64,000 bases of DNA from an uncultured virus (IMG/VR IMGVR_UViG_3300030019_000024) (taxonomy: Duplodnaviria > Heunggongvirae > Uroviricota > Caudoviricetes), in the IMG/VR virus record IMGVR_UViG_3300030019_000024; one strand, 5' to 3'. Numbering within the stretch: the first letter of the stretch is position 1; the number at the start of each line of letters is the position of its first letter. The translations under genes were made by a program, and so were the position numbers. The notes below the pieces were generated by a model. It saw only the letters and a program-made list of their open reading frames with translations. It was not told where the DNA came from and ran no database searches. Positions 10,272 to 62,302 of the stretch are shown here, one piece after another.

Positions 10272-10320
10272 TTTTATTATTCCAAATATTTGTATTATCT
10301 TTGTATCAAATAAAAACAAT

Positions 10321-55909: not shown

Positions 55910-57108
55910 TATGTTTGTATCTTTTCTTTTAATTTTACTAATAATAATCTTCTTTTTAGAAATATTAATGTTTCTATTATAGAATTTAGTATATATTCTT
56001 TTCTGTTATTATAACTCCACATATAGTTGTTTCCACCACCTAAAGTTTTAAATTCATTGTGTGTTTTTGAATATTCTTTTATTAATAAATTAATATCCAA
56101 TCCTTGTGATAAGAAAATTTGATATATTTCTAAAATATCTTTCTTATGATAACCATCAACCTTATATACAAATTCATTATACAATGATATTTCTTTAAAA
56201 ATGATAGTAGAATTACTATCATTTAGTAATCCAACTTCTACAAGTAATTTAAAATAAGATAAAAATTCACTATAATAACCACGTAAGTTATGCAAACCCC
56301 TTATCATAAACGTAATATGTGATTTTTTATTTTTTACTATATTTATGTAATTTATAATATCTGAATCGTAAAATTTTTTGCGAACATCCAAATATTGTGA
56401 TGGTGTAATAGTATCAATCACATAATCAAATAACATAGTATATTCAGAACATAAACTATAATTATCAAGTTTTATTAATAACTTTATTATCTGTGACTTA
56501 GTTAATGTTTTAATTATAAGTAAACTAAAAAATTCAATTAAATTTCTATCTGAATGATAATATAAATTTGAGTTAACTGATAATAATGAACTTAATAATT
56601 CATATAATCTTATCTGATTGTTTTTAATTGTTACTTTATCCCTTGGGTTTATAATATTATCAGTTAAATATCTATCTATTAATTTCAATGAATTAATTGT
56701 AGACTTTTTCGAAATATTATAATAAAGCAAAAGTGCTAAATTTCTTAATTCACCAAGTTTTTCTACCCTTTTGTAATAATCATAAAATGAATTACCTCTA
56801 TCATATAGTTTTAATATTTCATAATTGTATTTTATAATTCCTTTATACTTAGTATAATCAACTATCGGTTTTATACTAAAATATGAATCTTCTATATTTA
56901 TATGCTTATCAAAAATATATTTAAATACAGTATCATCTTTTTCTAATATAGAATCTATCCCTCTTTGATATCTATCTTGCGTAAATTTAGTAATATCTTG
57001 GGATTCTAATATTTCATCTATTAAATCAATATCAGTTGTTCTACCAATACTTCCTAATAATAAATAAGGGTATTCTTTAAGTTCTTCTACTGCTTTATAT
57101 TTGTACAT
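55909..57108 (-). CDS. Hypothetical helical protein
   Basis: 399-aa ORF; ends LKRRLLLVKLKEKI. Confidence 0.55.
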   Translation of the reverse strand: MYKYKAVEELKEYPYLLLGSIGRTTDIDLIDEILESQDITKFTQDRYQRGIDSILEKDDTVFKYIFDKHINIEDSYFSIKPIVDYTKYKGIIKYNYEILKLYDRGNSFYDYYKRVEKLGELRNLALLLYYNISKKSTINSLKLIDRYLTDNIINPRDKVTIKNNQIRLYELLSSLLSVNSNLYYHSDRNLIEFFSLLIIKTLTKSQIIKLLIKLDNYSLCSEYTMLFDYVIDTITPSQYLDVRKKFYDSDIINYINIVKNKKSHITFMIRGLHNLRGYYSEFLSYFKLLVEVGLLNDSNSTIIFKEISLYNEFVYKVDGYHKKDILEIYQIFLSQGLDINLLIKEYSKTHNEFKTLGGGNNYMWSYNNRKEYILNSIIETLIFLKRRLLLVKLKEKIQT

Positions 57109-57192
57109 AAAAAAAGATTATTTAATTCTACTATAATATACAAATATACTATAAAAGTTTTAAATAACCTTTCTATTTTATTAAAATTAATC

Positions 57193-57297
57193 TTATTTAA
57201 CGATAATTAATAATGTACAAGTTGGACATATATAATATACACCATCACCCGTTTGTATTAAAGTCATTTCAATTTGACAATTTGGACATGTTTTCAT
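57193..57297 (-). CDS. 34-aa zinc-ribbon microprotein (not in ORF track)
   Basis: MKTCPNCQIEM...YYICPTC; two CPxC motifs. Confidence 0.6.
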   Translation of the reverse strand: MKTCPNCQIEMTLIQTGDGVYYICPTCTLLIIVK

Positions 57298-57315
57298 TTC
57301 GTTAAATATATTTTG

Positions 57316-57389
57316 TGATCTGGAAGGGATTCAAACCCTTGACATTTTCATTAGAAGTGAAATGCTCTATTCAACTGAGCTACCAAACC
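57316..57389 (-). tRNA. tRNA-Arg(TCT)
   Basis: Cloverleaf; anticodon arm TTTCA-CTTCTAA-TGAAA. Confidence 0.9.
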
Positions 57390-57396
57390 ATTTTTG

Positions 57397-57467
57397 TTGT
57401 CCAACAAGGATTCGAACCTTGACACCAAGAACCAAAGACTTGTGTGCTACCATTACACCATCGGACA
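57397..57467 (-). tRNA. tRNA-Gln(TTG)
   Basis: Loop CTTTGGT; U1-A72. Confidence 0.9.
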
Positions 57468-57578
57468 ATTTAATGTTGTTACTATTATATATATATTATT
57501 CTTTTGGTCAAAAGTTTAATAAATAGTAAAAATAGTTTGTTCTTTTCTATTTAGAACAAAAAAGAACAAACTATAAAG

Positions 57579-57664
57579 AGCAGAAAAAGGGATTCGAACC
57601 TTCGGTGTGATATTATCTTTCCAGCTTGGAAGGCTGGCGAAATCGACCACTATGCGACTTCTGC
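57579..57664 (-). tRNA. tRNA-Gly(TCC) with long variable arm
   Basis: CCAGC-CTTCCAA-GCTGG; ~17-nt variable region; U73. Confidence 0.8.
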
Positions 57665-57683
57665 ATATAACATTTACATGTTG

Positions 57684-57755
57684 AGCAGATAACGGTAATC
57701 GAAACCGCATCCTCGGTATGGTAAACCGATGCACTAACCATTGTGCTATATCTGC
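57684..57755 (-). tRNA. tRNA-Gly(ACC)
   Basis: TCGGT-TTACCAT-ACCGA; G1-C72, C2-G71, U73. Confidence 0.85.
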
Positions 57756-57770
57756 ATATAATATTTAAAG

Positions 57771-57842
57771 AGCAGGTGAACAGAATCGAACTGTCATCCT
57801 GAGTTTGGAAAACTCACGCACTAACCATTGTGCTACACCTGC
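57771..57842 (-). tRNA. tRNA-Gly(TCC)
   Basis: TGAGT-TTTCCAA-ACTCA; U73. Confidence 0.9.
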
Positions 57843-57958
57843 GGTATTTTACGTCCTGGAAAGGACGGGTTCTACTGTTTTCCTTCATCCTGCAAAATCA
57901 TTTATAAATCATACTTATAAACATAATTGCAATACTTTAAAATTATTACTTTATATAA

Positions 57959-58702
57959 TTAAACTTTAATCCATTTTCTTATTGTATTATCACAAACACC
58001 ATATTTTCTACCTGTTCCACAATATCCTAATATTTCAACATCTTTAATTAATTGACTATGTTGGGGTCTATTTTCATTAGATTTTTCTAATCTGAATATT
58101 CCTTCACATTTTTTACATTTCATTGACCGTTTATCTATTTCTTTACCACAAGAACAAAAATTATTAGACTTTACTTTTGAATTATTTTTTGTTTTTTTTG
58201 TCACTATTGTTTTTAATTTTATTTTTGATTCTATTTTATTTATTTTATTTTTAGAACCAAAATTATCTGTTTGACTATGACAATTTGGACAAAGAACTTT
58301 TAAATTATTTAATTCATGATTTCTATTATCACCATCAATATGATGTAAATGTAAAGATATATCTTTATCACACCATTTAATTATACCACAATTTTCACAT
58401 TTATTTTCTTTAAGACCATTTTTTATTAATTTAATTCTTAATAAACCAATATTTGTATATGTGGATTTTTTTATTAAAATATCATCTAACGACATTATTT
58501 TACCAGGGTATTTATATTTTTCCCCTTTGTTCCATCCTTGACCTATAAAGTGTGAAATATCAATACTATATTTATTAATTAAATTATGTACTCTTTTATA
58601 ATTTCCACCTACTGGTCTTATATTTAACATTCTACAAACATCTGCAATCGAGAAAGATTCTTTAAATATTTTTTTTATTTCTTCTATATCAATAATTTTC
58701 AT
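57959..58702 (-). CDS. HNH homing-type endonuclease inside the tRNA array
   Basis: CENCG...LHLHHIDGD..N....NL..LCPNCHSQT; C-terminal zinc finger and HTH. Confidence 0.9.
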   Translation of the reverse strand: MKIIDIEEIKKIFKESFSIADVCRMLNIRPVGGNYKRVHNLINKYSIDISHFIGQGWNKGEKYKYPGKIMSLDDILIKKSTYTNIGLLRIKLIKNGLKENKCENCGIIKWCDKDISLHLHHIDGDNRNHELNNLKVLCPNCHSQTDNFGSKNKINKIESKIKLKTIVTKKTKNNSKVKSNNFCSCGKEIDKRSMKCKKCEGIFRLEKSNENRPQHSQLIKDVEILGYCGTGRKYGVCDNTIRKWIKV

Positions 58703-58771
58703 ATTTTTTTTTAATTATATATTATATAATTAATAGTCAAAAAAAAATATACATTTTGCGTTTATGCTTTG

Positions 58772-58852
58772 TACTTGTAGACGGGATCGAACCGTCACGC
58801 TTTTCAGCATATGTTCCTAAAACATAGGTGTCTACCATTCCACCATACAAGC
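58772..58852 (-). tRNA. tRNA-Leu(TAG)
   Basis: TATGT-TTTAGGA-ACATA; long variable arm. Confidence 0.9.
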
Positions 58853-58857
58853 ATATG

Positions 58858-58944
58858 TACTGATGATGGGAGTCGAACCCACACGCACCTTACGATGCAA
58901 CAGATTTTAAGTCTGTCATGTATTTCCAGTTTCATCACATCAGC
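58858..58944 (-). tRNA. tRNA-Leu(TAA)
   Basis: ACAGA-CTTAAAA-TCTGT. Confidence 0.9.
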
Positions 58945-58953
58945 ATATTATAG

Positions 58954-59036
58954 TAACTTAGATGGGATTCGAACCCATACGTCTTTCGACACTACATTTT
59001 GAGTGTAGCATGTTCTACCAATTTCATCACTAAGCC
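58954..59036 (-). tRNA. tRNA-Leu(CAA)
   Basis: CTACA-CTCAAAA-TGTAG. Confidence 0.9.
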
Positions 59037-59042
59037 ATTTTG

Positions 59043-59105
59043 TCGAAGGGTGAAGATTCGAACTTCAACAATAGCTAAATGCACCGCTATTTCCACATAC
59101 CTCCG
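59043..59105 (-). ncRNA. D-armless tRNA-like RNA
   Basis: Acceptor CGGAGG/CCTTCG, T-arm TGAAG-TTCGAAT-CTTCA, stem AATAGC-10 nt-GCTATT, no D stem. Confidence 0.6.
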
Positions 59106-59111
59106 TTATTG

Positions 59112-59198
59112 TACCTAAAGTGGGACTCGAACCCACACACCTACTTTATTCGGTAATAGCCTCTTAAACTATCGTGTCTACCATTCCACCATTTAGGT
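59112..59198 (-). tRNA. tRNA-Leu(AAG)
   Basis: ATAGT-TTAAGAG-GCTAT; long variable arm; A73. Confidence 0.85.
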
Positions 59199-59208
59199 AT
59201 TTATATTG

Positions 59209-59291
59209 TTGCGAAAATGGGATTCGAACCCATGAAATCTTACGATAACACCTTATGAGAGTGTCCTATTTGACCGCTTTAGTACTTCGCA
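59209..59291 (-). tRNA. tRNA-Met/Ile2(CAT) with extended variable arm
   Basis: ACACT-CTCATAA-GGTGT; variable hairpin ATC-GTAA-GAT. Confidence 0.8.
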
Positions 59292-59300
59292 ATATATTTG

Positions 59301-59373
59301 TTCCCCAACCAGGGTTCGAACCTGGATTACTGCATCCAAAGTGCTGTGTGGTTAGCCATTACACTATTGGGGA
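59301..59373 (-). tRNA. tRNA-Gln(TTG)
   Basis: Loop CTTTGGA; U1-A72. Confidence 0.85.
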
Positions 59374-59383
59374 ATATTTAAAG

Positions 59384-59467
59384 AGCCTTCTGTCAGATTC
59401 GAACTGACGTGTCTTATTCAGATCTTGATTACAAGTCAAGCGCAATCGACCACTATGCGAAGAAGGC
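59384..59467 (-). tRNA. tRNA-Thr(TGT) with long variable arm
   Basis: CTTGA-CTTGTAA-TCAAG; variable ATCTGAATAAGACAC. Confidence 0.8.
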
Positions 59468-59479
59468 ATTTTTATTTAA

Positions 59480-59557
59480 TGGTGGAGAATATCGGGTTCG
59501 AACCGATGACCCCTTGCTTGCAAAGCAAGTGCTCTAAGCCAACTGAGCTAATCCCCC
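59480..59557 (-). tRNA. tRNA-Ala(TGC), encoded CCA
   Basis: CTTGC-TTTGCAA-GCAAG; G3:U70. Confidence 0.95.
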
Positions 59558-59577
59558 ATTATTTACTTTTTAAAGTG

Positions 59578-59649
59578 TGGAGATGTGGGTAATTGAAACC
59601 CAATTTATTGGTTGCAAACCAATTGTAATAGCCGTTATACGACACCCCC
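59578..59649 (-). tRNA. tRNA-Ala(TGC), divergent copy
   Basis: ATTGG-TTTGCAA-CCAAT; G3:U70. Confidence 0.8.
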
Positions 59650-59696
59650 TTGTTGAATTTTTGTTTTTTTATAGAAAAAATTCTAAAATCTACTTG

Positions 59697-59771
59697 GGTG
59701 AAAGGCGGGTCTCGAACCCGTGACCTTCTGAACCACAATCAGACGCTCTAACCAACTGAGCTACAATCACC
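59697..59771 (-). tRNA. tRNA-His(GTG)
   Basis: TCTGA-TTGTGGT-TCAGA; G-1:C73. Confidence 0.9.
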
Positions 59772-59798
59772 ATATATACTTATTTTTCAATAAGTTTG

Positions 59799-59872
59799 TC
59801 GGGATGAAAGGACTCAAACCTTCAATAACCTTGTGACCAAAACAAGTAACCTCATCAATGGATCGCATCCCG
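59799..59872 (-). tRNA. tRNA-Pro(TGG), atypical D arm
   Basis: CTTGT-TTTGGTC-ACAAG; C1-G72, A73. Confidence 0.7.
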
Positions 59873-59880
59873 ATATTTAG

Positions 59881-59953
59881 TAGAGTAGACAGGGCTCGAA
59901 CCTGCGACCTCAACATCCCAAATGTTGTAATCTTCCAACTGATATACTACTCT
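59881..59953 (-). tRNA. tRNA-Pro(TGG)
   Basis: CAACA-TTTGGGA-TGTTG. Confidence 0.85.
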
Positions 59954-59958
59954 ATGTG

Positions 59959-60048
59959 GGTGAATAACGAGGCTCGAACTCGCAGGGACCTTTTTTAAAG
60001 GTTCAGGGGCCACAACCCTATCGGATACCATTACCGTTTATATTCACC
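59959..60048 (-). tRNA. tRNA-His(GTG) with long variable arm
   Basis: TAGGG-TTGTGGC-CCCTG; variable hairpin ACCTTT-AAA-AAAGGT; G-1:C73. Confidence 0.8.
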
Positions 60049-60075
60049 ATATTAACTTATTTTACAATAAGTTTG

Positions 60076-60148
60076 TCGGGATGACAGGGCTCAAACCTGC
60101 GACTTCTTGCTCCCAAAGCAAGCACTCTTTCCACTGAGCTACATCCCG
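60076..60148 (-). tRNA. tRNA-Pro(TGG)
   Basis: CTTGC-TTTGGGA-GCAAG. Confidence 0.9.
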
Positions 60149-60187
60149 TTATATTTGTCCAAAATGTCAAAGAACTAATTTTTTTTG

Positions 60188-60259
60188 TGTTTCCAAAGGG
60201 ATTCAAACCCTTATCGTCTGGTCCGTAGCCAAGTGTTCTATTCGTTGAACTATGGAAAC
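60188..60259 (-). tRNA. tRNA-Arg(ACG), first gene of the array
   Basis: Loop CTACGGA. Confidence 0.85.
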
Positions 60260-60265
60260 ATATTT

Positions 60266-60307
60266 AAAAAAGAAAAACCCAATTCAAGTTTCGTTGAATT
60301 GGGTTTT
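60266..60307 (-). terminator. Intrinsic terminator (attenuator) immediately upstream of the tRNA array
   Basis: AAAACCCAATTCAA-CGAAAC-TTGAATTGGGTTTT-TCTTTTTT, ending 6 nt before tRNA-Arg(ACG). Confidence 0.85.
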
Positions 60308-60331
60308 GCATATTTCGTTTTATAATCTATC

Positions 60332-60448
60332 TTACATAATAATTATGTTTTTAGTTATACGATTACACGTACCCAATCCAGTGCCACGACCTCCTTGAGG
60401 TAGTTGTGTTGGTTGTAAATGCGCCATATGTAATCTAACTGTTGTCAT
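60332..60448 (-). CDS. Putative attenuator leader peptide (38 aa) of the tRNA operon
   Basis: MTTVRLHMAHLQPTQLPQGGRGTGLGTCNRITKNIIIM; codons match array anticodons; A-rich translation initiation region. Confidence 0.75.
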   Translation of the reverse strand: MTTVRLHMAHLQPTQLPQGGRGTGLGTCNRITKNIIIM

Positions 60449-60529
60449 AATATTAATTTTTACTTGTTTTGTTATTTTTATATATTTAATCAGAAAAGTC
60501 GTTTTTTTCCATTTTTTCTGATTGTGATA

Positions 60530-60561
60530 CAAAGGTAATACAAATTTTCCGAATTACCAAA
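60530..60561 (-). promoter_or_regulatory. Bacteroidota sigma70-type promoter for leader/tRNA operon
   Basis: TTTG-20 nt-TACCTTTG on minus strand. Confidence 0.8.
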
Positions 60562-60691
60562 TGTTTTTCAATTTATTTTCATTTATTTTAAAAATATACT
60601 TATTATAGTATGTTTAATTTAAAAAGTTTGATTTATTATTGAATAAATACGTTTTATTTTTGAAATAGACTTTTTATTTCTATTTTCTTTA

Positions 60692-60723
60692 CAAAGATAA
60701 TACAAATAATTGGATTATACAAA
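60692..60723 (-). promoter_or_regulatory. Second Bacteroidota sigma70-type promoter
   Basis: TTTG-20 nt-TATCTTTG on minus strand. Confidence 0.75.
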
Positions 60724-60730
60724 TATTATA

Positions 60731-61510
60731 TCAATCAATACCTAAATTAAATTTTCTTGCCCAGAAGCATCCTTTATTTAATGCTACTTTTACATCAAAC
60801 CCATCTAAAATTTTTGGGTGGTGTTTATTTTCTGACCAATCTATATAACGTAGGTTATTATTTACGATTGTGTCTTTAAAATCGGAATTCATCAATACTG
60901 TTTGGAAATACATTTCATCGGGTATTTGTGAAAATTTAAAAAAATCATAAAAATATTCTTTTTTTGAAAAATCTTCATATAAAAATAATAGACAGTCATG
61001 TGTTATCGAAAACCATTGTGATCCATCATAATATTTTATATTGATATTAAAAATCCTTTTATCCCCTAAAAATTTCCAAGATTCATCAATATCCCATGAT
61101 TTAGAAATTCTACTAAACTTTGGTTTATTTGGTAATAAATCATGGTATTCTATATAATTTTTTCCATTATTTTTTATGAAAAAATCATCTATTACATTTC
61201 TACTTACGATAGGTAGACATGAATTACTTAATAGGTGTATATAATCAGCATTAAATCCACTTTTTAAATATTCGTCAAATAATTCAAAGGTAGCTTCAAT
61301 CATACTGAATCCACCCCATTTTACTTGAACACGTTTTTTTATAAATATTACATTATCTGAAAATTCAGATAAAGCACTTTTAAACACATCAATATATGAT
61401 TTAGCATCTATATGTATAAAAATTATATCATTTTTATTAGTTAGTGTTGAAATCAACTGTCTTAATTGATTTGGTTTATCATGTGCTAAAATTAAGTAAG
61501 CAAATTTCAT
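60731..61510 (-). CDS. Glycosyltransferase family 14 (Core-2/I-branching-like), paralog 1
   Basis: AYLILAH, FIHIDAK, V.WGGFSMIEAT, GSQWFSIT, IPDEMYFQT, NLRYIDW, ARKF. Confidence 0.9.
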   Translation of the reverse strand: MKFAYLILAHDKPNQLRQLISTLTNKNDIIFIHIDAKSYIDVFKSALSEFSDNVIFIKKRVQVKWGGFSMIEATFELFDEYLKSGFNADYIHLLSNSCLPIVSRNVIDDFFIKNNGKNYIEYHDLLPNKPKFSRISKSWDIDESWKFLGDKRIFNINIKYYDGSQWFSITHDCLLFLYEDFSKKEYFYDFFKFSQIPDEMYFQTVLMNSDFKDTIVNNNLRYIDWSENKHHPKILDGFDVKVALNKGCFWARKFNLGID

Positions 61511-61528
61511 TCTTAATCTTTTTTTTTA

Positions 61529-62302
61529 TTACATCCCTAAATCAAATTTTCTCCCCCAAAAACAGCAAGTATTTAATGCTATTTTTAAATCATCATCATT
61601 CAATGTTTTAGGATGTTTATTTTTTTCAGACCAATCTATATAACGTAAATTATTATTTACTATTGTGTTTTTAAATTCCGTATTTAATAGTATTGTTTGA
61701 AAATACATTTCATCTGGTATTTGTATATACTTAAATTTTTCATTATATACACCATTATTATATATATTATATAAATATTCTAAACACTCATTTGTTATAG
61801 AAAACCACTGTGAACCCTTATAATATTTAATATTGTTATCATATTTTTCATTTATTCCATCATATATAATTTCACTATCTTTTAAAATCCATTTATATAA
61901 ATATCTATAAGAAAAATTATCATATATATTTACCAATTCATAATTTAGATAATTTTTATTATTGTTACAGAAGAATTTTTTAATTTCATCATTTGGTTTT
62001 ATCGGTAAGCATACACCACTTATTAGATGAATATAATTAGCATTAAATTTACTATTTAGATAACATTCAAAAAGTTTTATAGTTGCTTCTACCATACTGA
62101 ATGTACCCCAATGTATATCAATTCTATCATCAAGAAAAATAACATCATTTTTATATTTTTCTAATGCATTATGAAAAATATTAATATCACATTTTTTATC
62201 AAGGTGTATAAAAATTTTAGTATCTTCATTTAAAATTGAAGATACTAAATAATTTAATTGATTAGGTTTTTCATGTGCTAATATTAAATATGCAAATTTC
62301 AT
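61529..62302 (-). CDS. Glycosyltransferase family 14, paralog 2
   Basis: Same motifs as 60731-61510. Confidence 0.9.
   Translation of the reverse strand: MKFAYLILAHEKPNQLNYLVSSILNEDTKIFIHLDKKCDINIFHNALEKYKNDVIFLDDRIDIHWGTFSMVEATIKLFECYLNSKFNANYIHLISGVCLPIKPNDEIKKFFCNNNKNYLNYELVNIYDNFSYRYLYKWILKDSEIIYDGINEKYDNNIKYYKGSQWFSITNECLEYLYNIYNNGVYNEKFKYIQIPDEMYFQTILLNTEFKNTIVNNNLRYIDWSEKNKHPKTLNDDDLKIALNTCCFWGRKFDLGM

Follow-up and report, generated by a model that had tools for sequence, protein, structure and literature searches.

Locus organization

The stretch of DNA analysed here (64,000 nucleotides (nt) of the uncultured virus record IMGVR_UViG_3300030019_000024; hereafter, the window) carries on its minus strand an array of transfer RNA (tRNA) genes that is preceded by a short leader open reading frame (ORF) and an intrinsic terminator. 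As argued below from sequence, these elements probably constitute a ribosome-mediated (leader-peptide) transcription attenuator that gates the tRNA array of a huge phage. The gene order described in an earlier note on this DNA was confirmed: two promoter-like motifs, a leader ORF of 38 codons plus a stop codon (60332-60448, peptide MTTVRLHMAHLQPTQLPQGGRGTGLGTCNRITKNIIIM), the terminator, and the tRNA array 6 nt further on. The terminator (60266-60307) is formed by a 14-base-pair (bp) stem with arms at 60307-60294 and 60287-60274, a 6-nt loop CGAAAC, and a U-tract at 60273-60266 (tail UCUUUUUU), and its hairpin energy is -16.2 kcal/mol. The first tRNA gene, Arg-acg, begins at 60259.

The array (57315-60259) includes tRNAs specific for nine amino acids (Arg, Pro, His, Ala, Thr, Gln, Met, Leu, and Gly) with 14 distinct anticodons. 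The number of 20 tRNAs given in the earlier note was too high, as ARAGORN identifies 19 genes (with or without the intron search) and Rfam identifies 18.

Codon content of the leader

A recount of leader codons 2-27 agrees with the earlier observation that 25 of these 26 codons specify the nine amino acids of the array. The proportion is 28 of 37 codons for the whole leader and 12 of 12 for codons 6-17. The putative regulatory codons (approximately 2-18) read T T V R L H M A H L Q P T Q L P Q and cover eight of the nine amino acids, with the Gly codons following at positions 19-20. Since the same nine amino acids account for a fraction of 0.315 of the phage proteome, the binomial probability of 25 matches in 26 codons is 5e-12.

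Codons 2-27 have a G+C content of 46% and lie within intergenic DNA of 7-20% G+C, so that base composition had to be controlled. The codon match could in principle have arisen by chance from a local rise in G+C content within a genome of 25% G+C, the more so as the nine array amino acids have G+C-richer codons. However, in 85,486 open-frame mononucleotide shuffles of these 78 nt, 25 matches were never reached (the mean is 13.2), and the match is specific for the reading frame, the other two frames of the same DNA containing 11 of 30 and 12 of 30 codons for array amino acids. The same rule also holds in the 26 further leader units described below, including those with the A+T-rich codons of Lys, Asn, Ile, Tyr, and Phe. 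We consider a compositional origin of the match extremely improbable.

At the level of individual codons, the leader contains the exact Watson-Crick codon for 11 of the 14 array anticodons, in line with the earlier count, and the codons GCA, CAC, and CTT are absent. This match is weaker evidence because the codons involved are those preferred by the phage, and 51 of the 85,486 shuffles reach the same level.

Antiterminator and predicted effect of ribosome position

A 10-bp pairing between positions 60380-60371 of the leader and positions 60304-60295 of the terminator 5' arm had been proposed, and it proved to be real, with nine Watson-Crick pairs and one G-U pair. The predicted antiterminator strand (region 2, 60363-60381, CUGGAUUGGGUACGUGUAA) was delimited by folds and duplex energies; it has its core at 60380-60371 and spans codons 23-29. 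The energy of the leader-arm pairing is -16.1 kcal/mol compared with a shuffle mean of -6.9 kcal/mol (z -4.8), a value attained in 0 of 300 shuffles. Region 1 (GUUAGAUUACAUAU, 60426-60439) pairs with 60367-60353 in the untranslated RNA, and the resulting 1:2 helix (duplex energy -11.0 kcal/mol), which resembles the 1:2 helix of trp, is part of the minimum free energy (MFE) structure both before the terminator 5' arm is made and at full length. The full-length MFE structure contains the terminator and has an energy of -51.2 kcal/mol, compared with -44.9 kcal/mol for the forced antiterminator. The folds also contain the small hairpin ACCUC-AAG-GAGGU inside the ORF (60389-60401) that had been noticed before; a function as a pause site is speculation.

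The ribosome was simulated as a 30-nt mask in folds of the nascent RNA of the window. If the A-site is placed at codons 3-18, the fold contains the antiterminator, in which 60380-60371 engages 10 of the 14 nucleotides in the terminator 5' arm. If it is placed at codons 22-30 instead, region 2 is masked and 0 of the 14 arm nucleotides are paired with it, so that the arm is left free for the terminator.

We propose the following scheme. Transcription would start at the motif near 60530-60544 and enter the 38-codon ORF, in which codons 2-18 would sample eight of the nine array amino acids before the Gly codons at 19-20. If decoding is fast, the ribosome would occupy codons 23-29, the antiterminator strand, while the polymerase makes the terminator; the 14-bp hairpin would then form and transcription would stop 6 nt before the first tRNA. 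If the ribosome stalls at any regulatory codon, region 1 would be covered and region 2 free, and the latter would capture the terminator 5' arm on its emergence, allowing read-through into the 19 tRNA genes. Since the products are the very molecules that relieve the stall, the circuit would be a closed, self-limiting negative feedback that keeps the supply of tRNAs in step with the demand of decoding. The anatomy and the codon match are observed, as are, in the relatives treated below, its co-variation with the arrays and the unit-specific antiterminator pairing; that the ORF is translated, which way the switch works, and what triggers it physiologically are what we infer.

Leader units in related huge phages

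Besides other phage genes, the window has genes for a T4-type large terminase and a GmrSD-like nuclease. By terminase, its closest relatives are five uncultured huge-phage records of 634-735 kilobases (kb) with 41-47% identity, namely LR745206, LR756502, LR756504, and LR756501/LR756503, the listed matches of the last two being identical. Next in similarity are jumbo phages of Tenacibaculum and Flavobacterium. The window probably derives from a huge phage with a host in Bacteroidota.

The four huge phages LR745206, LR756502, LR756504, and LR756501 contain 43-62 tRNA matches each, split into sub-arrays by amino acid. Leader units were collected by a composition-blind rule that required a strong hairpin with a T-run followed by a tRNA, and took the longest ATG-initiated ORF that ends between -6 and 70 nt before the terminator. 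Two terminators that precede a tRNA and end long genes (L024, L031) were left out. Together with the window, this gave 27 units, 26 of them from the four huge phages. The short leader ORFs of the 26 related units are 16-42 codons long. Their terminators range from -11 to -20 kcal/mol and lie 6-100 nt before the next detected tRNA; where, as in the window, this gap is only 6-15 nt, there is no room for another promoter. In units L020, L026, L027, L034, L040, L043, and L038, we observed 65-180 nt between the terminator and the first ARAGORN tRNA, and tRNA-like sequence in these gaps suggests unusual or intron-bearing tRNAs missed by ARAGORN.

The amino acid content of the leaders follows that of the tRNAs behind them. 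The leader MTTTQQIQQQQINQTD precedes three tRNA-Gln genes, and MTTSFQQQQQQQINRTD precedes four. The leader MKTINNTSKSSSRSSSMSEIRLYS stands before Arg and Ser, MKTIAMIIRMRIIRPKMLG before Arg, Ile, and Met, MKTKKQQYKQYQPQYK... before Tyr, Tyr, Gln, and Lys, MKAMILSLCLSLSLSLQ... before Leu, Ser, and Cys, and ...NIAIVEIAVIGGAEEGV... before Glu, Ala, Ile, Val, and Gly. All six Leu codons are used in MNNILHINLLNSLCLLGIKLIG, which is located before five tRNA-Leu genes with four anticodons. A homologue of the window cassette is present in LR756501, with the same 5' hairpin and aaaattaatATG start and the leader core TPAPAVAFRRGTGTGTGTCVPAGCG, and it precedes tRNAs for Arg, Thr, Val, Ala, Gly, and Pro. 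The more distant LR756500 contains one unit, with ...SVHIIHIWEHLLEEV... before His, Glu, Val, Trp, and Leu.

To quantify this correspondence, we defined a match score, the proportion of leader codons after the start codon that specify an amino acid of the unit's own tRNA set. Co-variation of leader codons with array content, which the earlier note had suggested looking for, is pronounced in the 27 units: the mean score is 0.437 compared with 0.182 after permutation (standard deviation 0.021), a value reached by 0 of 200,000 permutations, and the pooled z of 12 overstates independence, since the units of two of the genomes (W01 and W02) are orthologous. The within-genome permutation tests are unaffected by this orthology, and for all four genomes, pairing the leaders with their actual arrays gives the unique best arrangement (1/5040, 1/5040, 1/5040, and 1/120). 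Upstream leaders also hold codons for tRNAs located behind an inner leader, as in a Pro/Gln/Asp leader that precedes a Gln-only leader. When cumulative downstream sets are used, 234 of 323 codons at positions 6-17 match, compared with a fraction of 0.226 under permutation.

A further set of units was obtained from IMG/VR stretches carrying the 5'-hairpin motif that is described below. The DNA of 80 of more than 131 such stretches provided 91 motif instances and 23 distinct leader-like units. We used the 18 new ones whose short flanks included one or more tRNAs. Their match score is 0.254 compared with 0.114 permuted (0 of 100,000 permutations). Leader-like short ORFs with terminators and no tRNA within the fetched DNA were observed at L021 4954, L022 140, L080, L136, and L054 483; examples of leader-like ORFs without a detected tRNA are MKTMTINNRNRLTDII and MYRNLYINEEMCNNEIINNIDD..., and these were excluded from the tests.

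The antiterminator pairing co-varies as well. In the 27 units, the leader pairs with its own terminator 5' arm at -12.4 kcal/mol, compared with -8.2 kcal/mol for the leaders of other units (0 of 100,000 permutations), and in 17 of the 27 the leader-arm duplex is significant at p<=0.033 against 300 shuffles. The pairing strand invariably lies towards the 3' end of the ORF or immediately downstream of it. In the LR756501 homologue, GGGUGUGGGU pairs with ACCCACACCC, and in the window UGGAUUGGGU pairs with ACCCAAUUCA, which is the same architecture in other letters. Codons for amino acids of the unit's own set make up 59-85% at positions 8-17, no more than 19% at positions 2-4, and approximately 20-40% after position 18. 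The peak lies upstream of the antiterminator strand, which is the geometry required by attenuation.

In each of the 27 units, the ORF has an ATG, is closed by a stop codon in frame ahead of the terminator, and shows the conserved N-terminal codons M-K/T-T/N; the window shares its start ATGACAACA (MTT) with leaders in the huge-phage genomes W01 and W03. These features, together with the frame specificity of the codon match, argue against a reading in which the leader RNA is not translated and binds tRNAs directly by triplets that act like codons, as a T-box with multiple specifiers would. In favour of this reading, runs of cognate triplets adjoin the terminator/antiterminator switch. However, an Rfam scan of 57000-61000 at E-values up to 10 returned the tRNAs and weak chance matches, with no T-box and no family in the leader. 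We consider this reading very unlikely.

Beyond the first three to five residues, the peptides of the units show no conservation, while their composition follows the downstream tRNAs in each unit. This is difficult to reconcile with an independent small-protein gene that has its own terminator, with the tRNAs produced by constitutive leak-through or by processing at the hairpin. The strength of the terminator and the abundance of small peptide genes in phages are compatible with such a gene, but the leader peptide has no family in PHROGs, and we give this possibility a similarly slim chance. The candidate conserved peptide motif R-G-T-G-x-G-T-C, derived from the LR756501 homologue, was rejected after the pattern gave 0 matches in the four genomes; the R-G-T-G resemblance between the window and LR756501 results from their shared Arg, Gly, and Thr codons.

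Several observations weigh against the attenuator interpretation. The leader contains codons that are rare in the phage, namely GCG (4% of Ala), GGC (approximately 0% of Gly), and ACG (6% of Thr). The array-matching codons 20-27 are located where stalling would mask the antiterminator strand, and their inclusion among the sensors in the earlier note was dropped for this reason; part of the 25/26 match arises because the G-rich pairing strand reads as Gly. The non-independence of the W01 and W02 units counts here as well, as do the 10 of 27 units without significant leader-arm complementarity by the duplex measure. In the folds of the window, the nascent-RNA MFE structure switches to the antiterminator even without a ribosome, and the default state of the untranslated leader would, in this model, depend on kinetics and on the region 1:2 helix. 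Finally, a ribosome placed at the stop codon leaves region 2 free again in the fold.

Promoter-like motifs and the 5' stem-loop

Both promoter-like motifs upstream of the leader match TTTGTATTAYCTTTG exactly: the upstream copy TTTGTATTATCTTTG at 60692-60706 and the proximal copy TTTGTATTACCTTTG at 60530-60544, both on the minus strand. Elsewhere in the window, TTTGTATTAYCTTTG is found 18-24 nt upstream of the ORF starts at 10289, 34460, and 41716, and related copies are present in the nearest virus record (G001). The upstream copy contains TAnnTTTG, which we take to be the Bacteroidota -7 element. Judging from its position, the proximal copy is likely the promoter of the leader transcript.

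A 5' stem-loop with a 10-bp stem (AAUCAGAAAA...UUUUCUGAUU, 60523-60488, minus strand) is followed by AAAUAUAUAA at 60487-60478, and the stem is present in every fold. A mini-ORF, MEKNDFSD (60486-60512, minus strand), was observed in the loop and 3' arm of this stem-loop, 18 nt after the promoter-like motif. Related hairpin and AATATATA elements precede the leaders in the huge-phage genomes W01-W04, and the pattern GAAAAAANNGACWTTTT..AATATATA occurs in more than 131 IMG/VR stretches, the copy in the window being one base off. The 5' hairpin with AATATATA was considered as a leader-specific mark and rejected, since long protein genes in IMG/VR contigs (loci L059-L138) are preceded by it too, including those that encode MNFIVDSAKA..., MKNLKLELFNF..., and MAIQIGKYKRPG.... 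Relative to the TAnnTTTG motif, the element is located upstream in some loci and downstream in others. The element may represent a second class of promoters or a 5' untranslated region module common to highly expressed genes.

The occurrence of this element before long, structural-looking genes in related contigs would fit a temporal class of genes, and thereby a reading in which the same switch, like classic attenuators or ermC-type sensors, senses amino acid starvation or a general slowdown of translation, with read-through into the tRNAs as a by-product or timing device. It also speaks for this reading that, as established for trp and his attenuation, a stalled ribosome is blind to the difference between a missing and an uncharged tRNA. 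On the other hand, every sub-array has its own leader limited to its own amino acids, for which a general signal has no need, and extra tRNA is no remedy for amino acid starvation. We regard starvation or slowdown sensing as unlikely, although less so than the alternatives considered above, and retain attenuation by the cognate tRNA supply as the preferred interpretation.

Other features of the window and related sequences

Inside the array, a second intrinsic terminator with a 20-bp hairpin (57532-57574, minus strand) precedes the last two tRNAs, Gln-ttg and Arg-tct, and has no leader ORF. A sigma-70-like site TTGACC-16-TATAAT (11 of 12 positions) was observed between this hairpin and the last two tRNAs (57484-57574, minus strand). 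An HNH endonuclease gene (58702-57959, minus strand; phrog_10822, E-value 2.4e-46) is inserted between Leu(tag) and Gly(tcc). In bacteria, tRNAs with A-starting anticodons are rare; besides Arg(acg), the array contains Gly(acc) and Leu(aag) (57683-57755 and 59111-59198). Unusually long tRNAs were found for Gly-tcc (87 nt), His (90 nt), Thr (85 nt), and Met (84 nt). Directly upstream of the tRNA leader, two tandem paralogous genes for Core-2/I-branching glycosyltransferases are located at 60731-62302 (minus strand), with Pfam Branch E-values of 7e-36 and 2e-29.

IMG/VR was searched with exact patterns taken from the leader and from the first tRNA, and with the neighbouring Branch-domain protein; a single near-identical contig of 41 kb was retrieved. 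The IMG/VR completeness estimate of this contig, approximately 7%, fits a genome of several hundred kb. It extends approximately 22 kb beyond the end of the window and contains no other tRNA array, and it offered no information for comparison. A DNA search of the leader region against 50,697 phage records gave no match, and the matches in G001, which has no tRNAs, were to the promoter motif only. The runs listed as containing the sequence are 24 DNA sequencing runs from peat or pond metagenomes, with no RNA run among them. Contigs from four of the DNA runs were low-depth fragments of the same strain and unrelated tRNAs, the single contig covering 60343-60493 having zero differences to the window. 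Variants at 60493, 60497, and 60501 were observed in contigs of other runs.

Among the cultured phages examined, none provides a model: Tenacibaculum phage pT24 has four Rfam tRNA matches (three by ARAGORN) and no leader, and PTm1 and Flavobacterium phage MaF61 have no tRNA match. Transfer RNAs with a CUA anticodon (labelled Pyl by ARAGORN) were observed in L041 (LR756501), L056 (LR756500), and L058 (pT24), and none in the window; they are possible amber suppressors, which would hint at TAG recoding in these phages.

Comparison with known attenuation systems

The trp, his, leu, thr, ilv, and pheA operons of enterobacteria are controlled by leader-peptide transcription attenuators. The window leader resembles them in its short ORF rich in regulatory codons, its Rho-independent terminator, and its antiterminator, whose formation is predicted to depend on ribosome position; with the thr and ilv leaders it further shares the multivalent use of several amino acids. 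In contrast to the enterobacterial attenuators, the regulated genes here would be tRNA genes rather than biosynthetic enzymes, so that the sensed molecule and the product are of the same kind. In addition, up to nine amino acids would be sampled, the cassette is repeated for each sub-array and is sometimes nested, the host is probably a member of Bacteroidota, and there is no sequence relationship.

Genes of the translation apparatus are also known under leaders rich in cognate codons. The E. coli pheST operon is subject to leader-peptide attenuation via the pheM leader. For bacilli, a His leader before hisS paralogs appears in PMC2965389, the main text of which has 0 occurrences of 'tRNA gene'. 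The likeness to the window lies in placing a gene of the translation apparatus under such a leader, but the target in these synthetase cases is a protein enzyme for one amino acid and not a set of tRNA genes. T-box riboswitches likewise couple the state of a specific tRNA to the choice between terminator and antiterminator in a 5' leader; unlike the window leader, they bind uncharged tRNA directly, need no translation, and regulate aminoacyl-tRNA synthetase and amino acid genes.

A presumed attenuator-like leader at the E. coli tRNA-Phe genes was not supported: pheV and pheU are located approximately 105 nt after the preceding gene and have no annotated leader. A search of literature outside the subscription journals found no published account of tRNA genes, whether of phages or of cells, under leader-peptide attenuation. 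The proposed mechanism is a known one and its target, tRNA genes, is new; to our knowledge, this would be the first such case.

Biological implications

The control and purpose of phage tRNA genes are an open question, the usual answers being that they compensate for codon usage or make good the tRNAs that host defence removes. With its codons matched to the tRNAs behind it, the leader turns this question into a testable circuit. More broadly, and tentatively, each tRNA block of the huge Bacteroidota phages might be under its own sensor of decoding speed, an evolvable cassette whose test codons track the tRNA content and which is sometimes nested. The same cassette might also serve as a counter-defence alarm, in which depletion of tRNAs by host anticodon nucleases or phage-induced loss of host tRNAs would switch on the replacement tRNAs. 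The stalls might arise from codon demand, from loss of host tRNAs, or from tRNA cleavage by defences such as PrrC, RloC, and PARIS. Being modular, with a promoter, a leader whose codons can be exchanged, and a switchable terminator, the cassette could be used to report codon-specific translation speed. If the proposed mechanism is true, the leader would amount to a naturally occurring sensor of the tRNA pool that covers multiple codons, by which the phage would gauge decoding speed codon by codon and make only those tRNA sets that are in short supply.

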